Numbered from the stretch's first letter, positions 6,407 to 16,525 are shown. The stretch is 38,324 nt of DNA from Candidatus Poribacteria bacterium (GCA_022822215.1 JAJECD010000191.1:1-38324), one strand, 5' to 3'. Numbers and translations are program-made. The notes: a model not told the origin generated them from the letters alone.

Positions 6407-9400
6407 GTGTCTACACAGATGTGTCCCGTTATCAAGAAAATGATGAAAACTTTCAAGTTCGCACTAATTTTAATTATTCTGACTGTAGGAGGGATTTGCA
6501 ACCCCGACTCTTATAGCGACGCTTTTATCTACCACTGGGAAATAGATGAAACCCCAGAAGGCAGTGAAAGTGCAACCGTAATCGAACCTGTAGAAGTGAC
6601 GTTGTTGGATGAACCTATACAGGTCGTATCCCATAGTGCATCCTTAGCGTTACTGCGAAAGTATTCTGTACATCTTGGCACTGAATGGAACGCGAGGCGT
6701 GCCTATAGGTTACTTCAAACTTTTGAATCTATACCGCAAGAGACAAATAACCCTTATGAGGAAAGCCCCACGGTGGAATCTTCTATATGGAGACTCAGTA
6801 ACCGACACATTCAAGGGGACATCACCGTCGAATACCAAGGCGGCCAACGAGTTGTTACTATTGCTCAGACGGTGTTTACTTATGCGCAGCCGCTGTTAGC
6901 TGAAATTGAAGGTGTACGAGGCAGGTATTTCTCTAAACGCCTCCATCGTGCAGTGGTCCGCTTTGTTACCGATAGCGGTGCAGATAGATACGCCCTTGAG
7001 CGGATATTACGAGAACGCTACGCCATCAGTATAAACATTCCAGATTATAGCCAACTCACACGACACACAACCGGAGAACATGCCGGACGTTTTTCTGGAT
7101 TCAAAAACGAAGAACTGATAGCATTGATCTCCATGCTTGAAGAATTCCCGATAGGTATGATCAAGACTCCGGGGCTCAACTATTTTGTTCGTCGGTTAGA
7201 TGGTACACCGCATCCGCTTTATCCGAGTGCCCCTGCAGTCGCCTGGCCCACTGCAGGCTATATTGAGTTTATGGAATCTGCTTTTAAGGAACAAGGTCTC
7301 GATTATATCCATCGCCTGATTCTTCACGAAAAAGCACACTTTTTATGGCATCATCTCTTTGATGCACAACTCAAACAGGACTGGATCGAGCTCGGCGGTT
7401 GGTTTGAGAATCCCGACGATCGAGACGGTTGGTCAACGACAAAACAGGTCGAGTTTGTTTCTGCTTATGCCCACGGCATCAATCCGAATGAAGATATGGC
7501 AGAAAGTATCAGTTATTACATTGTAAATCCTGACAAACTTCGTTCGCGTTCACCTGCGAAATATGAATTTATTCAAAATCGGATTATGCACGGTACACGC
7601 TATGTCTCACAGATTCGTGAAGATTTAACGTTTGAGGTTTACAACCTATACCCGGACTATGTATATCCAGGACGAATCGTACGGATTGATATAAAGGTTG
7701 AAGGTGAACCAGAAGAAGATAAACGCATAACAGTTGAGATTGAAATTCACGGCGAAAGTGAATTAGATGCTGCCCAAAGTGCTTATATCCGTGTTTTTAG
7801 TAACAAAGGCACTTTTTTTGACCTTGCCTGGATGACTCTGGTTGATGCAAATGGACAGCAGGTTGCTGCTGGACATATTTTACGTGGACAAGCGACATTA
7901 TCAAAATATGCAGCAGATGGCTATTGGAACCCTGACCAGATCCGAATCTGGGATGCCCAGGGGAATGAGAGACTTGCATCCCAAACCGATTATGGCTGGC
8001 AACTCCATATTGACAACCCGCTCGCGGATTGTGAGCCACCGGTTTATGTTAAAAACTCGATGACCCTTTCACTGTCGAAAGCCACTACACCTGATGGTAA
8101 ACCTTATCAGATCGTTACAGCAAGTTGGGAGGTCATAGAAAAGACAGGTATACAATTCGTTTATGCGGCTTTAAATGATGATTTAAGGGAGACACATTCA
8201 ATATATAGACAGTCTGAATATGGGGGTTATGATAGCAAGTTGGATAGAGTCGTTGTGAAATTCAAGTTCCCTGAGTATATGCCAAGTGGTCTTTACAGTC
8301 TTAACAATATTACTATGTCAGATATTGCCTTGAATGAATCCAGTGTCTATTTCACAAATGATGGTACAGATGAAGCACCAAAAACTATTAAGATAAAAAC
8401 AAATACCCCGGACCTTGAACCGCCTGTTTTGGATGTCAACCGTATTACTATTAAAGCTGAGCCTACGATACCAGAAGCACCCAATGGTGAAACAATTGTT
8501 GATATTTCCTTTAGGATTAAAGACAACATTAGCGGCTATGAAATAAGTAGCCTGAATTTAAGAGACCCTCAAGGGGTTATGCACCATTTTTATCACTATC
8601 CAGATGGATATGGAGGGTTGTATTTTAATGGCAACCCCACACTTTTTAAGGAATACCACCAGAGGATAGTCCTACCTATAGGCAGTGCCCCTGGGATATG
8701 GGGACTTGCCGAGATGACAGTATTTGATAAAGCAGGAAACACACAACGACATGACTTCACCGAAATTGTCCGTTTTGAGGTAGGAGAGGAACCTGTCTAT
8801 ACCCAATACGATGTAAATCAAGATGGCAAAGTGGACAATACTGATTTGGGTCTGATAGCAGCAGCCTTAGGAGAGAATCCACCTATCAATCCGCGGGTAG
8901 ATGTTGATGGGAGTGGAACTGTTGATGGCAATGACTTGCTACTCGTGATAGAAAATTTTGACGAATCATCAGATGCTGCCCCGTCGGCTATTACGGTTAA
9001 AATTATTGGGCTCAGTCGAGATCAGATTCAAGCACAGATTGACTTGTTACTCTCAACGAATAACAACTCACTTGCAATGCAACGGACATTGACATTCCTT
9101 TACAACCTCTTAGCATCGGTATCTCCCGACAATACACAACTGCTCGCTAATTATCCGAATCCCTGCAATCCAGAGACGTGGATACCCTACCAACTCGCAA
9201 CCAGCAGCGATGTACAGATTACCATCTATGACGTGAAAGGCATCGTGGTTCGCAATTTGGAATTAGGACATCAGTCGGCGGGTTTCTATACGGGTAGAAG
9301 CCGTGCGGCGTATTGGAATGGTCGCAACGGTTTAGGGGAGCAGGTCGCCAGTGGAGTCTATTTCTATCAGCTGCAAGCAGACGAGATTTCACCTATGCGG

Positions 9401-9421
9401 AAGATGGTCATTTTGAAGTAA
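6407..9421 (+). CDS. Large secreted HEXXH (gluzincin-like) metalloprotease candidate with dockerin-type module and T9SS-type C-terminal sorting domain
   Basis: Signal peptide MMKTFKFALILIILTVGG; the true start may be ATG 6419 or 6440. HEKAH at 7325-7339, with NEDMAES about 47 aa downstream. Dockerin pair DVNQDGKVDNTDL / DVDGSGTVDGNDLL. The last 90 aa, NYPNPCNPETWIPYQL...GVYFYQL...KMVILK, is a Por_Secre_tail-type domain. Confidence 0.85.
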   Translation: MSTQMCPVIKKMMKTFKFALILIILTVGGICNPDSYSDAFIYHWEIDETPEGSESATVIEPVEVTLLDEPIQVVSHSASLALLRKYSVHLGTEWNARRAYRLLQTFESIPQETNNPYEESPTVESSIWRLSNRHIQGDITVEYQGGQRVVTIAQTVFTYAQPLLAEIEGVRGRYFSKRLHRAVVRFVTDSGADRYALERILRERYAISINIPDYSQLTRHTTGEHAGRFSGFKNEELIALISMLEEFPIGMIKTPGLNYFVRRLDGTPHPLYPSAPAVAWPTAGYIEFMESAFKEQGLDYIHRLILHEKAHFLWHHLFDAQLKQDWIELGGWFENPDDRDGWSTTKQVEFVSAYAHGINPNEDMAESISYYIVNPDKLRSRSPAKYEFIQNRIMHGTRYVSQIREDLTFEVYNLYPDYVYPGRIVRIDIKVEGEPEEDKRITVEIEIHGESELDAAQSAYIRVFSNKGTFFDLAWMTLVDANGQQVAAGHILRGQATLSKYAADGYWNPDQIRIWDAQGNERLASQTDYGWQLHIDNPLADCEPPVYVKNSMTLSLSKATTPDGKPYQIVTASWEVIEKTGIQFVYAALNDDLRETHSIYRQSEYGGYDSKLDRVVVKFKFPEYMPSGLYSLNNITMSDIALNESSVYFTNDGTDEAPKTIKIKTNTPDLEPPVLDVNRITIKAEPTIPEAPNGETIVDISFRIKDNISGYEISSLNLRDPQGVMHHFYHYPDGYGGLYFNGNPTLFKEYHQRIVLPIGSAPGIWGLAEMTVFDKAGNTQRHDFTEIVRFEVGEEPVYTQYDVNQDGKVDNTDLGLIAAALGENPPINPRVDVDGSGTVDGNDLLLVIENFDESSDAAPSAITVKIIGLSRDQIQAQIDLLLSTNNNSLAMQRTLTFLYNLLASVSPDNTQLLANYPNPCNPETWIPYQLATSSDVQITIYDVKGIVVRNLELGHQSAGFYTGRSRAAYWNGRNGLGEQVASGVYFYQLQADEISPMRKMVILK

Positions 9422-9522
9422 AATTTGAATAGACATCAGAGCGCAAAATCAGGTATAATACGTAAATGGCACAATATGATATTAGTGCGAAGTATCTATT
9501 GCTTGAACACGCCAAAGTCCTC
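9149..9522 (+). repeat. Duplicated 374-nt block, copy 1 (T9SS-tail coding region + intergenic + first 19 codons of the Rpn-like gene)
   Basis: Collinear, with no indels by hand alignment, to 11174..11547. The encoded tails are 81/90 aa identical. The intergenic aggtataatac and the ATGGCACAATA(T/C)GATAT start region are conserved. Confidence 0.8.
9454..9459 (+). promoter_or_regulatory. Consensus -10 box (TATAAT) 6 nt upstream of the Rpn-like ATG; possible leaderless transcript
   Basis: TATAAT at 9454-9459 and ATG at 9466, with no SD between them. The same arrangement occurs at 11479-11484 / 11491. Confidence 0.4.
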
Positions 9523-10473
9523 ATTGAATACTTCCTTGGCAGACAAGGCATAGAAATCTTAGAACATCTAAATACCGATCAACCCACATTCAAAACACAT
9601 CGTGGAGATAGCACAACAAGAGTCCGTATTGAAGGCGAAGAAGCGATAGTCCACCTGGAAGTGCAATCTGGCAATAGCCCCAAACCGATGTGGGCGCGAT
9701 TAGCAGCGTATTGCGGATTTCTCATCAGTGAATTTCAGATGCCGGTTTATTGCATTGTTTTGTATCTCGGACCCACCGCGGGACGGAACGACCCCGGCTA
9801 CTATGCGTATGAAACCGCAGAGTTCCGTTATTTAATCCAATATAAAGTGATCAGACTTGCGGAGATAGAGGGTCAGGCTGTATTGGAGACACAGGCACCT
9901 ATGCTACTGCCATTCACACCGCTGATGAAACCGCCGACCGATGTAAGTGCGGAGCAATGGTTAAAAAGATGCGTTACCGCCGCTGAGATGGCACCGGTTG
10001 AGAAATCCGTTCGCGATGACTTGGTTGCGATCCTTGGCATCTTCAGTGCTTTAGCTTATGATGAAGCCCTCGTGAATCAATTAATAAAGGAGGAGATTGT
10101 GCAAGAATCTACATTTTTTCAACACCACCTTGAAAGAGCGACAAAACGTCTGGAAGCAGAAACAGAACGCCGCACGCAAGAGGCACTCGAACAAGGTCTC
10201 GAACAAGGTCTCGAACAAGGACTTGAACAAGGACTTGAACAAGGTCTCGAACAAGGGGCAAAAAAAGGGGCAATTGAGGTTATCCTGTCATTTTTGGCTG
10301 CAAGATTCCAACCCAGAGCTGTGTATGCCTTAAAACCATTACTTGAAAATATTGACGATTTGGAACACCTCAAGCAGTTGGGAAGTGCAGCAGCAGCGTC
10401 ACAGAGCCTTGAAGCATTTTTGCAGACCTTGGGGGCACGAACAAACGCACAGAACGGAACGGATACCCCCTAA
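9466..10473 (+). CDS. Rpn/YhgA-like PD-(D/E)XK recombination-promoting nuclease (putative transposase family) with DUF4351-like C-terminal domain
   Basis: N-terminal YDIS.KYLL, the core IVHLEVQS....P..MWARLAAY (hlEhQ motif of the PDDEXK_2 family), YKVIRLAEIE...LLPFTPLM, then ESTFFQHHLE, E-Q-G repeats and a helical tail (ILSFLAARFQP...LEHLKQLG...LEAFLQTL). All are typical of the cyanobacterial-type family as I recall it. Confidence 0.85.
   Translation: MAQYDISAKYLLLEHAKVLIEYFLGRQGIEILEHLNTDQPTFKTHRGDSTTRVRIEGEEAIVHLEVQSGNSPKPMWARLAAYCGFLISEFQMPVYCIVLYLGPTAGRNDPGYYAYETAEFRYLIQYKVIRLAEIEGQAVLETQAPMLLPFTPLMKPPTDVSAEQWLKRCVTAAEMAPVEKSVRDDLVAILGIFSALAYDEALVNQLIKEEIVQESTFFQHHLERATKRLEAETERRTQEALEQGLEQGLEQGLEQGLEQGLEQGAKKGAIEVILSFLAARFQPRAVYALKPLLENIDDLEHLKQLGSAAAASQSLEAFLQTLGARTNAQNGTDTP
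10099..10473 (+). CDS. Candidate internally initiated C-terminal-domain product (RpnS-like) of the Rpn-like gene
   Basis: AAGGAGG (10087-10093), a 5-nt spacer, then GTG (10099), in frame with the 9466 ORF. It sits exactly at the boundary of the C-terminal domain and at the deletion junction of the paralog. There is no direct evidence of use. Confidence 0.3.
   Translation: MQESTFFQHHLERATKRLEAETERRTQEALEQGLEQGLEQGLEQGLEQGLEQGAKKGAIEVILSFLAARFQPRAVYALKPLLENIDDLEHLKQLGSAAAASQSLEAFLQTLGARTNAQNGTDTP
10189..10256 (+). repeat. 12-nt tandem repeat (5 full units plus a partial) encoding (EQGL)n
   Basis: gaacaaggtctc x2, gaacaaggactt x2, gaacaaggtctc, then gaacaagg. It translates to EQGLEQGLEQGLEQGLEQGLEQG. 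Confidence 0.95.
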
Positions 10474-10488
10474 AGTTTCGTTATATAC

Positions 10489-10653
10489 CATTACGACTTA
10501 CGCACTGCCTCTTACCTCCCCTCTGATAAGGTGCGGTGAATGCCCTAAGGCATTCATACCGTTGATTCTTTAAGGGGTTAAAAGATGAAAAAATACCGAT
10601 TTTTGCCTCCAAAGGTCTGATATTTGGTCATTTTGCGTAAGTCCTGAGTAATT
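10489..10653. repeat. MITE-like intergenic element, family B copy 1 (ACTTACGCA / TGCGTAAGT ends)
   Basis: The left end attacgacttacgcactg and the right end cattttgcgtaagtcctgagtaat are inverted repeats. The same two end types occur at 38060..38195 in the opposite orientation. The GAATGCC hairpin repeat (10535-10575) is nested inside. Confidence 0.55.
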
Positions 10654-10717
10654 ACGGGATATACTATAAGTCTTGGTTAACGTCTGCATTCTATTATAGG
10701 AAAGGAGCATAAAACAC

Positions 10718-11446
10718 TTGAAAAACAAAAACCTTTATCTTTTTCTTTTACTTTTCGTTCCAATTTTTTATCTGCCAGACACCTTTGCCCAAGGTTTTAC
10801 ACAATTGGGCTTGCCCGAAGGTGCTACAGCTCGCCTTGGAAGAGGAGGCATAGTAACGTCTGTGGCATATTCTCCAGATGGTAAGACGCTCGCCAGCGGG
10901 AGTTCCGGTCGGGTAGATTTATGGGATGCTGAGACCGGAGAACACAAGTTAACTCTTACCGATGGTGGTCGTTCAGTTGCATATTCTCCAGATGGTCGCA
11001 CCCTTTCAAGTGGAGGAACTTTGTGGGATGCGGAAACTTGGCACCGCAAGTTGACGCTTTCTGGGTTTTCAGGCTATGTTGATTCGGTTGTATACTCTCC
11101 AGATGGTCGCACCTTAGCAGGCGGTGGTTCCAATGGGATTCGTTTATGGGATGCGGAAACAGGACTTCTACCGAACTATCCCAATCCCTTCAACCCAGAA
11201 ACGTGGATCCCTTACCAATTAGCCACCAGCAGCGATGTGCAGATTACGATTTATGACATGAAAGGCACTGTCGTTCGCAATCTGGCATTAGGTCATCAAT
11301 CCGGGGGCTTTTATACCGGTCGAAGTCGTGCAGCGTATTGGGATGGCCGTAACGGTTTAGGGGAACGCGTTGCGAGTGGAGTCTATTTCTATCAACTGCA
11401 AGCAGATGATATTTCAACCATGCGCAAGATGGTTATTTTGAAGTAA
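10718..11446 (+). CDS. Secreted protein: three shortened WD40-like units fused to a T9SS-type C-terminal sorting domain
   Basis: TTG start preceded by GGAAAGGAG. Signal peptide MKNKNLYLFLLLFVPIFYLPDTFAQG. Three AYSPDG(K/R)TL..G....LWDAETG units. The tail NYPNPFNPETWIPYQL...KMVILK is 81/90 identical to that of the 1004-aa protein. Confidence 0.8.
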   Translation: MKNKNLYLFLLLFVPIFYLPDTFAQGFTQLGLPEGATARLGRGGIVTSVAYSPDGKTLASGSSGRVDLWDAETGEHKLTLTDGGRSVAYSPDGRTLSSGGTLWDAETWHRKLTLSGFSGYVDSVVYSPDGRTLAGGGSNGIRLWDAETGLLPNYPNPFNPETWIPYQLATSSDVQITIYDMKGTVVRNLALGHQSGGFYTGRSRAAYWDGRNGLGERVASGVYFYQLQADDISTMRKMVILK

Positions 11447-11547
11447 AGCTTAAGTGGACATCCCGACGGAAGATTAGGTATAATACCTATATGGCACAAT
11501 ACGATATCAGCACGAAATACCTGTTGCTTGAACATCCGAAAGTACTC
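11174..11547 (+). repeat. Duplicated 374-nt block, copy 2
   Basis: See 9149..9522. Same length and collinear. Confidence 0.8.
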
Positions 11548-11886
11548 AAGGAGGAGATTGTGCAAGAATCTACTTTTTTTCAACACCACCTTGAAAGAGC
11601 AACAAAACGCCTTGAAGCGGAGACAGAACACCGCACGCAAGAGGCACTTGAACAAGGACTTGAACAAGGCAAAGCACAAGGACTTGAACAGGGCATGCGG
11701 GAAAGCACTATTGAAAGCATCATTGATGTTCTGGAGGTGCGATTCCAGCCCAGTGTCGCACAAGCCTTAAAGCCAGCACTTGAGAGAGTTACCGATCTGC
11801 GGCAGCTCAGGCAGTTACTGCGCACAGCGGCACAGGTCCAAACCCTTGAAGCGTTTACGCAATCTTTAATGGCAAACGGCAATTAA
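11491..11886 (+). CDS. Nuclease-deleted paralog of the Rpn-like gene (first 19 codons joined in frame to the DUF4351-like C-terminal domain)
   Basis: MAQYDISTKYLLLEHPKVL|KEEIVQESTFFQHHLERATKRLEAETEHRTQEALEQGLEQG... The junction corresponds to loss of 9523..10086 (564 nt, 188 codons) of the full gene. The AAGGAGG-N5-GTG is retained at 11548-11562. Confidence 0.75.
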   Translation: MAQYDISTKYLLLEHPKVLKEEIVQESTFFQHHLERATKRLEAETEHRTQEALEQGLEQGKAQGLEQGMRESTIESIIDVLEVRFQPSVAQALKPALERVTDLRQLRQLLRTAAQVQTLEAFTQSLMANGN

Positions 11887-16484: not shown

Positions 16485-16525
16485 GGGGAATGCCTCACGG
16501 CATTCATACCGTTGATTTTCTAAAA
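16485..16525. repeat. Hairpin-containing intergenic repeat (second copy at 10535..10575)
   Basis: ggggaatgcctcacggcattcataccgttgattttctaaaa versus ggtgaatgccctaaggcattcataccgttgattctttaagg. Stem gaatgcc/ggcattc. Confidence 0.6.

Follow-up and report, generated by a model that had tools for sequence, protein, structure and literature searches.

A putative gene within a gene of the RpnL/RpnS type, and a nuclease-less relative beside it, in Candidatus Poribacteria

Introduction

Bacterial genes of the rpn family can encode two proteins in one reading frame, a long toxic nuclease (RpnL) and a short protein (RpnS) that binds RpnL and blocks it (Zhong et al., 2023; PMC10400941). Initiation at the internal start of rpn genes has been proven in Escherichia coli and C. 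difficile, and in E. coli an internal promoter gives a separate short transcript (PMC10400941). Here we describe a locus that probably has a similar architecture in a genome of the sponge symbiont Candidatus Poribacteria (GCA_022822215.1, JAJECD010000191.1:1-38324). The whole stretch of 38,324 nucleotides (nt) that was analysed is referred to as the window. It contains open reading frame (ORF) A (9466..10473), whose predicted product of 335 amino acids (aa) resembles RpnL, and ORF B (11491..11886), a 131-aa relative that lacks the nuclease domain and resembles the free-standing RpnS proteins (RpnSs). All features described below lie on the + strand.

The first helix of RpnS is built of four-residue repeats, each consisting of one hydrophobic residue together with charged residues or Gly. 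The number of repeats varies among strains, and in E. coli RpnL and RpnS must match for neutralisation, which a mismatch abolishes (PMC10400941). RpnS also exists as a separate gene, annotated as DUF4351 in some species, and second copies of RpnS lie downstream of rpnE (ypaA) and rpnC (PMC10400941). YpaA is annotated as a pseudogene but is actually produced (PMC10400941). Arrays of rpn genes are known to arise by tandem duplication, transposition has been argued against, and fusions of an rpn N-terminal part with an rpnSs region have been reported, with RpnL suggested as the driver (Zhong et al., 2023; PMC10400941). At the catalytic end, residues D11, D63, E82, Q84 and R94 of RpnA are required for activity by experiment (Kingston et al., 2017; PMC5350276).

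An internal ribosome-binding site conserved as nucleotides

The product of ORF A is composed of an N-terminal domain of probable PD-(D/E)XK type (about aa 1-207) and a helical C-terminal domain. At the boundary between the two, as in E. coli rpn genes, lie an in-frame Shine-Dalgarno (SD) sequence and a start codon. The SD, AAGGAGG (10087..10093), encodes K208-E209-E210 and is followed, after a spacer of 5 nt, by a GTG at 10099 (codon 212). Translation from this GTG, which the sequence leads us to predict, would yield an RpnS-like protein of 124 aa (10099..10473). The duplex energy with the anti-SD at 10099 is -11.6 kcal/mol, which places the site in the top 0.9% of positions within ORF A and makes it stronger than all ORF starts tested in the window (-3.8 at the ATG of ORF A, -8.2 to +2.7 at the others). 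The longer ORFs of the window mostly have weak SD pairing or none at their first possible start, and both internal AAGGAGG sites, that of ORF A and that of ORF B, stand out locally.

For comparison, 82 full-length relatives were taken from the fetched loci and aligned. They are mutually related, so that the counts given here are not independent trials, but their protein identity spans 40-85% and silent sites elsewhere are saturated. At the column of V212, 62 have ATG, 15 GTG and 3 TTG, and the remaining 2 have an ATG one codon later; an SD-like site precedes the in-frame start by 5-8 nt in every one (82/82). At the internal site the duplex energy averages -9.8, compared with -2.4 over the remaining positions of these genes; in 94% of the relatives the site ranks in the top 5% of its own gene. 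GGAGG occurs there in 76 of the 82, whereas 76,320 nt of the remaining gene sequence contain 39 copies of it (0.008 per scanned window).

The pattern of this conservation is informative. The arrangement xxG-GAG-Gxx is preserved while it encodes 23 different amino-acid triplets (PEG, KEE, PEE, PEA, LEA, MEE, TEE, REE and others), and in one relative (L054) GGAGG lies in another reading frame. Where Pro is encoded at the SD its codon is always CCG, and Glu is encoded by GAG in 74 of the 82 relatives even though 64% of the Glu codons of these genes are GAA. Where the start column has Val, the codon is GTG without exception. In members of the Latescibacterota the Met lies three or four codons earlier and GGAGG is shifted along with it. 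Such a joint shift of Met and GGAGG, with the spacing of 5-8 nt kept, is seen in L069-L071, L085 and L089. What is conserved at the internal site is the nucleotides, not the protein.

Free-standing homologues lead to the same codon. Among the best 150 matches to ORF B in a representative library, most are of 64-200 aa and free-standing forms dominate; many of the free-standing homologues begin exactly at the residue of the V212 column (MQESVVYQ.., MQESSVYQ.., MLESATYQ.., MDAIMRESSF..). An initial annotation of the window had remarked on the internal SD and GTG and on their position where the C-terminal domain begins. The first remark is borne out by nucleotide-level conservation in all 82 relatives, and the second agrees with the many free-standing proteins that start at the same residue.

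Silent divergence between ORFs A and B is also low just past the internal start: the proportion of synonymous differences (pS) is 0.31 for 10087-10194 against 11548-11655 and 0.57-0.77 for the other segments. Gene conversion between A and B was considered and set aside, since the same stretch is also more conserved against orthologues. General constraint, acting on the RNA near the start site, is the more likely cause.

A distant branch of the Rpn nucleases

In the protein collection the family of ORF A has 1,486 matches, for none of which a Pfam domain is recorded, and a scan of one genome per species returned 509 stretches that encode it. The best 80 of these 509 come nearly all from Candidatus Poribacteria, with a few from Latescibacterota. 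The initial annotation had assigned the protein to the Rpn family and its tail to the DUF4351 type. Its sequence statements (both ORFs, the motif IVHLEVQS, AAGGAGG-N5-GTG and a 564-nt in-frame gap between the ORFs) were all reproduced, but the search with family hidden Markov models (HMMs; PF04754/TIGR01784 and DUF4351) that it proposed as a check failed, and the link could be made only by profile-profile comparison.

In that comparison the whole protein aligns with RpnA/B/C/E and one Poribacteria PF04754 protein with a probability of 98.4% (E 4.1e-15, 265 columns). The post-repeat tail, with the repeats excluded, aligns with the PF14261-positive tails of Poribacteria PF04754 Rpn proteins at 92% (E 6.7e-7, 56 columns), in agreement with the proposed DUF4351 (PF14261) type; bona fide Poribacteria PF04754 proteins (L004:120-1175, P0275, P0343) share this tail with the ORF A family. 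Like DUF4351, the tail shows the pattern RF...I..I.D...L..L and is found both at the end of Rpn nucleases and as free-standing small proteins. It differs in being a divergent sister type below the detection of Pfam PF14261, which has no match in A, in B or in ten free-standing short relatives. Within the clade of ORF A, one and the same N-terminal domain (72-77% identical) is joined to two unrelated tail types.

The core of the nuclease domain is recognisable. ORF A contains IVHLEVQS, with H63, E65 (9658-9660) and Q67 (9664-9666), as well as D48 (9607-9609). In 33 sequences of the family D5 is invariant, and D48, E65, Q67 and R78 are conserved in at least 90%. These five residues, D5, D48, E65, Q67 and R78, are the counterparts of RpnA D11, D63, E82, Q84 and R94: hhalign pairs D5, D48 and R78 with D11, D63 and R94, whereas E65 and Q67 were matched by the motif hhhE-x-QS, hhalign being 2 columns off. 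Like the E. coli proteins RpnA-E and RpnP2, ORF A shows the PD-(D/E)XK-type core motif D...E-x-Q with a flanking D and R, and has a variable helical C-terminal domain. A position-for-position equation of K208-E209-x-x-V212 with RpnA K240-E241-x-x-M244 was dropped, as hhalign puts RpnA M244 near the repeats.

The AlphaFold2 (AF2) model of ORF A has a predicted local distance difference test score (pLDDT) of 83 and shows an alpha/beta N-terminal domain, then a 63-residue helix (216-278) and four short helices. The top PDB matches in a fold search with this model are PD-(D/E)XK nucleases, namely EndoMS/NucS, Cap4 and BamHI, all of them weak (E 0.03, TM about 0.2). No full-length Rpn structure is present in the PDB, and a profile search of the ORF A family against PDB sequences gave nothing useful. 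On profiles and core residues, we place the ORF A family among the Rpn nucleases (YhgA-like; COG5464) as a distant branch whose tail resembles DUF4351, and not as a strict member of PF04754. The Rpn assignment of the initial annotation therefore stands as regards a distant branch and falls short as regards a match to the family HMMs.

Four-residue repeats of variable number

As in RpnS, the first helix of the predicted short form carries four-residue repeats whose count varies. In ORF A a 12-nt tandem repeat of 5.9 copies (10186..10256) encodes LEQG six times in the long first helix of the C-terminal domain, which is helix 216-278 of the AF2 model. In ORF B the 12-nt repeat has 3.8 copies (11646..11690) and encodes LEQG-LEQG-KAQG-LEQG. 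Among 82 genes the number of hEQG repeats ranges from 2 to 14. It differs between close orthologues (6 in ORF A, 3 in L001) and between tandem paralogues (10 and 5; 11 and 14). All of the adjacent short copies examined mismatch their long neighbour: the counts are 6 against 4 in the window, 7 against 6 in both L050 and L064, and 2 against 5 and 1 in L080. In E. coli K-12, YpaA and RpnE are 75% identical and are set apart by one extra KLEG in YpaA.

A main start without a Shine-Dalgarno sequence

Upstream of ORF A lies a promoter-like site of sigma-70 type, TAGACA-18-TATAAT (9430..9459), which matches the consensus at 11 of 12 positions. Its -10 box ends 6 nt before the ATG and no SD intervenes, the SD duplex energy at this ATG being only -3.8. 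ORF B is preceded by a site of the same kind, TGGACA-18-TATAAT (11455..11484), again with 11 of 12 consensus matches and a gap of 6 nt before the ATG. Most relatives in Poribacteria are preceded by the same layout, TTGACA-N17/18-TATAAT-N5-7-ATG. Given so short a distance between the -10 box and the ATG and the lack of an SD, the mRNA of the long form is probably leaderless. Combined with the strong internal SD, a leaderless main start would mean that one transcript gives little nuclease and much short protein.

A third promoter-like site, TTGGCA-17-TATGAT (10034..10062), lies just upstream of the internal SD. It is weak (10 of 12 matches) and doubtful, and it is not kept in relatives; lacking conservation, it was not relied on as a functional internal promoter comparable with that of E. 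coli rpn.

ORF B, a mosaic with an in-frame deletion

ORF B consists of codons 1-19 of ORF A joined to codon 208 onward, so that relative to A it has a 564-nt in-frame gap (9523-10086), and its 19-aa N-terminal stub is fused to the C-terminal domain at 11547|11548. It retains AAGGAGG-N5-GTG (11548..11562), with the SD at 11548-11554 and the GTG at 11560-11562 (codon 24); the duplex energy is -11.4, and the product predicted from this start has 108 aa. The stub itself is predicted to be disordered. Over the first 55 shared codons the two ORFs are about 95% identical, but over the last 76 aligned residues only about 54%, and B has 4 repeats where A has 6, together with a different tail. The description of B in the initial annotation as exactly the nuclease-deleted form of A hence holds for the 19|208 codon architecture and is overstated for the tail and the repeats.

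The duplicated unit exceeds the ORFs. Positions 9149-9523 match 11174-11548 at 81.6%, from the C-terminal sorting domain of the upstream gene through the promoter. The left end of the unit is formed by this sorting domain (FlgD_ig/Por_Secre_tail, 9149..9421), which belongs to a gene of 1004 aa. Between A and B lies an ORF of 242 aa (10718..11446) that begins at a TTG with SD and encodes a signal-peptide-like N-terminus, three WD40-type repeats and the other copy of the sorting domain (11174-11446). The orthologous loci L001 and L094 do not have this ORF, which looks like a chimeric gene made by the duplication.

The 5' part of B (end of the sorting domain, promoter and first 19 codons) shares about 82% identity with A and, to the same extent, with several orthologues. 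The tail of B is about as far from one clade as from any other (50-59%), and the 3' flank of B is the ancestral one of the locus. Synonymous divergence between A and B is about 1.1. From the 5' part, the equidistant tail and this divergence it follows that B stems from a diverged copy of the unit; as far as the sequences tell, it is a mosaic and not a recent duplication of A, contrary to the direct derivation from A that had been supposed. The ratio of non-synonymous to synonymous divergence (dN/dS) is 0.19, but most of the divergence may predate the deletion in B, and the ratio is therefore no proof that B has a function. The deletion junction, with a microhomology of 1 nt exactly or of 6/9 loosely, gives no clue to the mechanism. 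A transposon origin of the inserted segment was rejected, as it has no terminal repeats or target duplications and ends in multi-copy sorting-domain sequence.

A sister genome, L094 (GCA_022825465.1, JAJDWT010000014.1, 5700-6400), and likewise L095, have flanks 93% identical to the window. Both are without the 1004-aa gene, A and the WD40 gene, and carry only a 64-aa ORF with the 19|208 junction and an A-type end. As the same junction is present in the window and in L094, it predates the split of the two genomes. B and the L094 allele differ at 7 sites in the 117 nt they share, and all 7 differences are synonymous, which points to selection on the protein after the deletion, the 19-residue stub included. 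Alternatively, the silent differences may have been imported from full-length paralogues by gene conversion, a possibility suggested by the mixed nature of the L094 allele, which resembles A in one part and B in another.

Short copies and deletion derivatives in relatives

The layout of a long gene followed by a nuclease-less copy, known from rpnE-ypaA in E. coli and pointed out for the window in the initial annotation, recurs in six other loci (L011, L050, L064, L070, L072 and L080). The SD and the start are preserved in each of the six short copies examined, which come from five of these loci (one each from L011, L050, L064 and L072, two from L080). In L011 (OY282383.1, 4001-7145) a long, a second long and a short gene stand in tandem, and their repeats number 10, 5 and about 6. 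L078 contains a full-length pair, one copy having 11 repeats and the other 14, and tandem arrays are also found in L042 and L087.

Other derivatives have lost parts of the gene. In L002-L009 (e.g. L002, 5607-6366) the syntenic orthologue is broken by an out-of-frame deletion of about aa 122-203, which is seen in several samples. The products there are a 142-aa N-terminal fragment with an intact catalytic motif and an ORF of 117-121 aa from the same SD-GTG. L045 (OZ241845.1, 2625-2978) holds an in-frame mini-derivative in which the first 57 residues are fused to the last 55 or so; it keeps the promoter, lacks the internal start and is followed, 1.3 kb downstream, by a full-length paralogue. In P0123 (192 aa) the nuclease core has been deleted in frame for a third time, again independently, and L039 contains a frameshifted copy of the gene. 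P0132 (271 aa) and P0133 (275 aa) consist of three tandem short C-terminal domains, each opening with MxES..Q, and thus represent RpnS-like triple fusions.

Genomic neighbourhood

Around the locus lie genes for an HpcH-type aldolase, PhyH, a MacB/ABC transporter and secreted sorting-domain proteins. Some 60 nt past the stop codon of ORF A, a hairpin, GAATGCC-N4-GGCATTC, is followed by ATACCGTTGATT (10535..10556; -24.6 kcal/mol, z -3.7). A second copy of the hairpin lies at 16485-16506, after an ORF of 479 aa. Possible identities are a terminator-like element without a T run and a repeated palindrome resembling the repetitive extragenic palindromic (REP) elements.

Discussion

We consider it rather probable, by analogy with the E. 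coli proteins and from the comparisons above, that ORF A is a gene within a gene of the RpnL/RpnS type, encoding a nuclease and an intragenic short form. In outline, the promoter at 9430-9459 would give rise to an mRNA of ORF A with no leader or almost none, and initiation at its 5'-terminal ATG (9466) would give the 335-aa PD-(D/E)XK nuclease. The AAGGAGG at 10087-10093 would recruit ribosomes to the GTG at 10099 and thus direct the synthesis of a 124-aa helical protein identical to the C-terminal domain of the nuclease. By analogy to E. coli RpnA, this short protein may pair with the long form through the long helix that bears the LEQG repeats and restrain a nuclease presumed to be toxic. 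With a leaderless start that is weak and an SD-led internal start that is strong, each mRNA would yield the short form in excess. ORF B would be a free-standing nuclease-less relative, like YpaA (RpnESs), with a promoter and an internal start of its own, derived from a diverged copy of the unit (sorting-domain end, promoter and gene) by in-frame deletion.

The parallel with the described systems has its limits. Like YpaA and RpnCSs, B is a nuclease-less copy of the C-terminal domain that lies downstream of a full-length gene and arose by local duplication, and like YpaA it differs from the tail of its neighbour by whole four-residue repeats. Tandem duplications are also common to both groups. 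B, however, keeps the promoter and the first 19 codons, and so represents an internal in-frame deletion and not a duplicated tail; another gene separates it from A; and its tail, about 54% identical to that of A, is no recent copy. For ORF A, the long form is apparently leaderless and no conserved internal promoter was seen in relatives, in contrast to the internal promoter of E. coli rpn, and the modelled short form is a single 63-residue helix with four short helices.

Several findings weigh against the proposal that A and B form a system of this type. None of the Pfam models PF04754, PF12784 and PF14261 matches A, B or 31 relatives (PF04754 and PF12784 at E<=1). NCBIfam TIGR01784 gives E 2.7e-4 and 20.9 bits with A, below its cut-off of 52.1, and covers only the tail (aa 199-281), so that ORF A, unlike the E. 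coli proteins, falls below the thresholds of both PF04754 and TIGR01784. It is also without the PDDEI motif of the transposase_31 domain (PF04754), in whose place 33 sequences of the family have LLPFTPLMKPP. The N-terminal domain alone gave weak profile-profile matches (E 0.006 and 0.015) in comparisons with four E. coli Rpn proteins and with 18 PF04754 proteins, so that the Rpn link rests mainly on the tail and the order of motifs. The predicted short products are of 108-124 aa, as opposed to 49-61 aa in E. coli, and the repeats start about 30 residues after the internal start codon in the clade of A and about 13 in most of the family, the published range being 8-20. A fold search with the model of B (pLDDT 78) returned no match at E<2 and did not list RpnA_S (7TH0, a three-helix bundle dimer), although small helical domains are hard for the method. 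In the orthologous locus L001, where A is 85% identical, the order is sorting-domain protein, Rpn-like gene and PhyH, with neither the WD40 gene nor B, and the L094 allele has undergone a second deletion, to 64 aa. By the E. coli rule, the repeat mismatch (4 against 6) and the diverged tail of B would lead one to expect no neutralisation of A. Finally, PADLOC matched the repeat region only and reported no defence system, and no sign of defence genes or a defence island, a prophage or a transposon was found in the neighbourhood. The link to phage defence raised in the initial annotation thus finds nothing to lean on in what is a metabolic neighbourhood outside any defence island, again unlike the E. 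coli systems.

The internal site could in principle be something other than a start. The effect of internal SD-like sequences on elongating ribosomes has been a subject of discussion in the literature, and GGAGG with its Met or Val might be a pause signal between the domains, or part of a conserved peptide motif, in a gene that makes the full-length protein only; [IL]-M-Q-E-S is indeed conserved as protein too. We think this very unlikely, since the nucleotides are kept over 23 triplets with Pro always as CCG and Glu as GAG in 74 of 82, GGAGG follows the shifted Met at 5-8 nt in L069-L071, L085 and L089, and every Val in the start column is encoded by GTG. The codon of this column is also the one with which free-standing genes open, the SD and the start are retained in the six downstream short copies examined, and the same arrangement has been proven to initiate in E. 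coli and C. difficile rpn (PMC10400941). With A working as described, B may be the decaying remnant of a duplicated copy, a pseudogene that is still open and has no role, and the absence of B from L001, the junction allele of only 64 aa that a second deletion left in L094/L095, the predicted disorder of its stub and a repeat number unlike that of A all suit such an origin. Independent disruptions of the gene have occurred elsewhere (out of frame in L002-L009, in frame in P0123 and L045, by frameshift in L039), and the low dN/dS between A and B may date from before the deletion. Yet B retains a promoter with 11 of 12 matches, the SD, the GTG and an ORF of 131 codons, and its 7 differences from the L094 allele, which the shared junction dates after the deletion, are all synonymous; we put the probability of this by chance at about 1e-4, with about 72% of random changes being non-synonymous. 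Nuclease-less copies with an internal start are present in at least six other loci, free-standing forms dominate the best matches to B, and YpaA of E. coli, a copy of the same kind, is annotated as a pseudogene and yet made. On balance we find a functionless B somewhat doubtful but quite possible.

A further explanation takes the mismatch itself as the point: the short neighbours, B included, would be no antitoxins of the adjacent gene but stored C-terminal specificity variants. Recombination, perhaps by the Rpn nuclease, would bring them into the expressed gene and so change repeat number and tail in toxin and antitoxin together. Every adjacent short copy differs from its neighbour in repeats, as RpnE and YpaA do by one, B is a mosaic, the L094 allele mixes A-like and B-like stretches, and in the clade of A the same N-terminal domain (72-77%) occurs with two unrelated tail types; Zhong et al. 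moreover report fusions of rpn N-terminal parts with rpnSs and name RpnL as a possible driver (PMC10400941). Among the loci compared, however, no recombination event between a long gene and its neighbour was caught, nor were signals of site-specific recombination found, the B junction shows microhomology over only 1 nt, and a repeat mismatch is also expected from slippage after duplication, so that this explanation appears unlikely. That B neutralises A is doubtful as well, and pairing of the short copies with the adjacent gene, as shown for RpnC, is not the obvious answer to their presence.

The interpretation we prefer, a gene within a gene in ORF A, can be extended in two directions: the ratio of toxin to antitoxin would be set purely by translation on one leaderless mRNA, and the mismatched neighbours would be stored specificity cassettes. 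Such extensions are improbable in our view, but they would have consequences. If the former were true, a shift between leaderless and SD-led initiation, for example during phage takeover or stress, would arm the nuclease, and if the latter were true, the short copies would constitute a variation system for a toxin-antitoxin pair.

Implications

The architecture discussed here has already been described for RpnL/RpnS; the novelty lies in the lineage, in a family that lacks annotation and in the leaderless twist. The Rpn gene-within-a-gene arrangement would be extended to a large clade that is unannotated in current domain databases. The mismatched nuclease-less neighbours raise a question that also concerns YpaA of E. 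coli, namely which role such a copy may have if it is unable to pair with the adjacent gene. The evidence for the internal start consists of comparative nucleotide data and not of ribosome profiling, which is of value as these sponge symbionts are unculturable. An SD that persists across changing codons, a start that shifts in step with it and free-standing genes whose first residue is the one at that start together make up a signature by which hidden internal genes may be recognised. The conserved leaderless main start suggests a simple route by which more antitoxin than toxin could be obtained from one mRNA.

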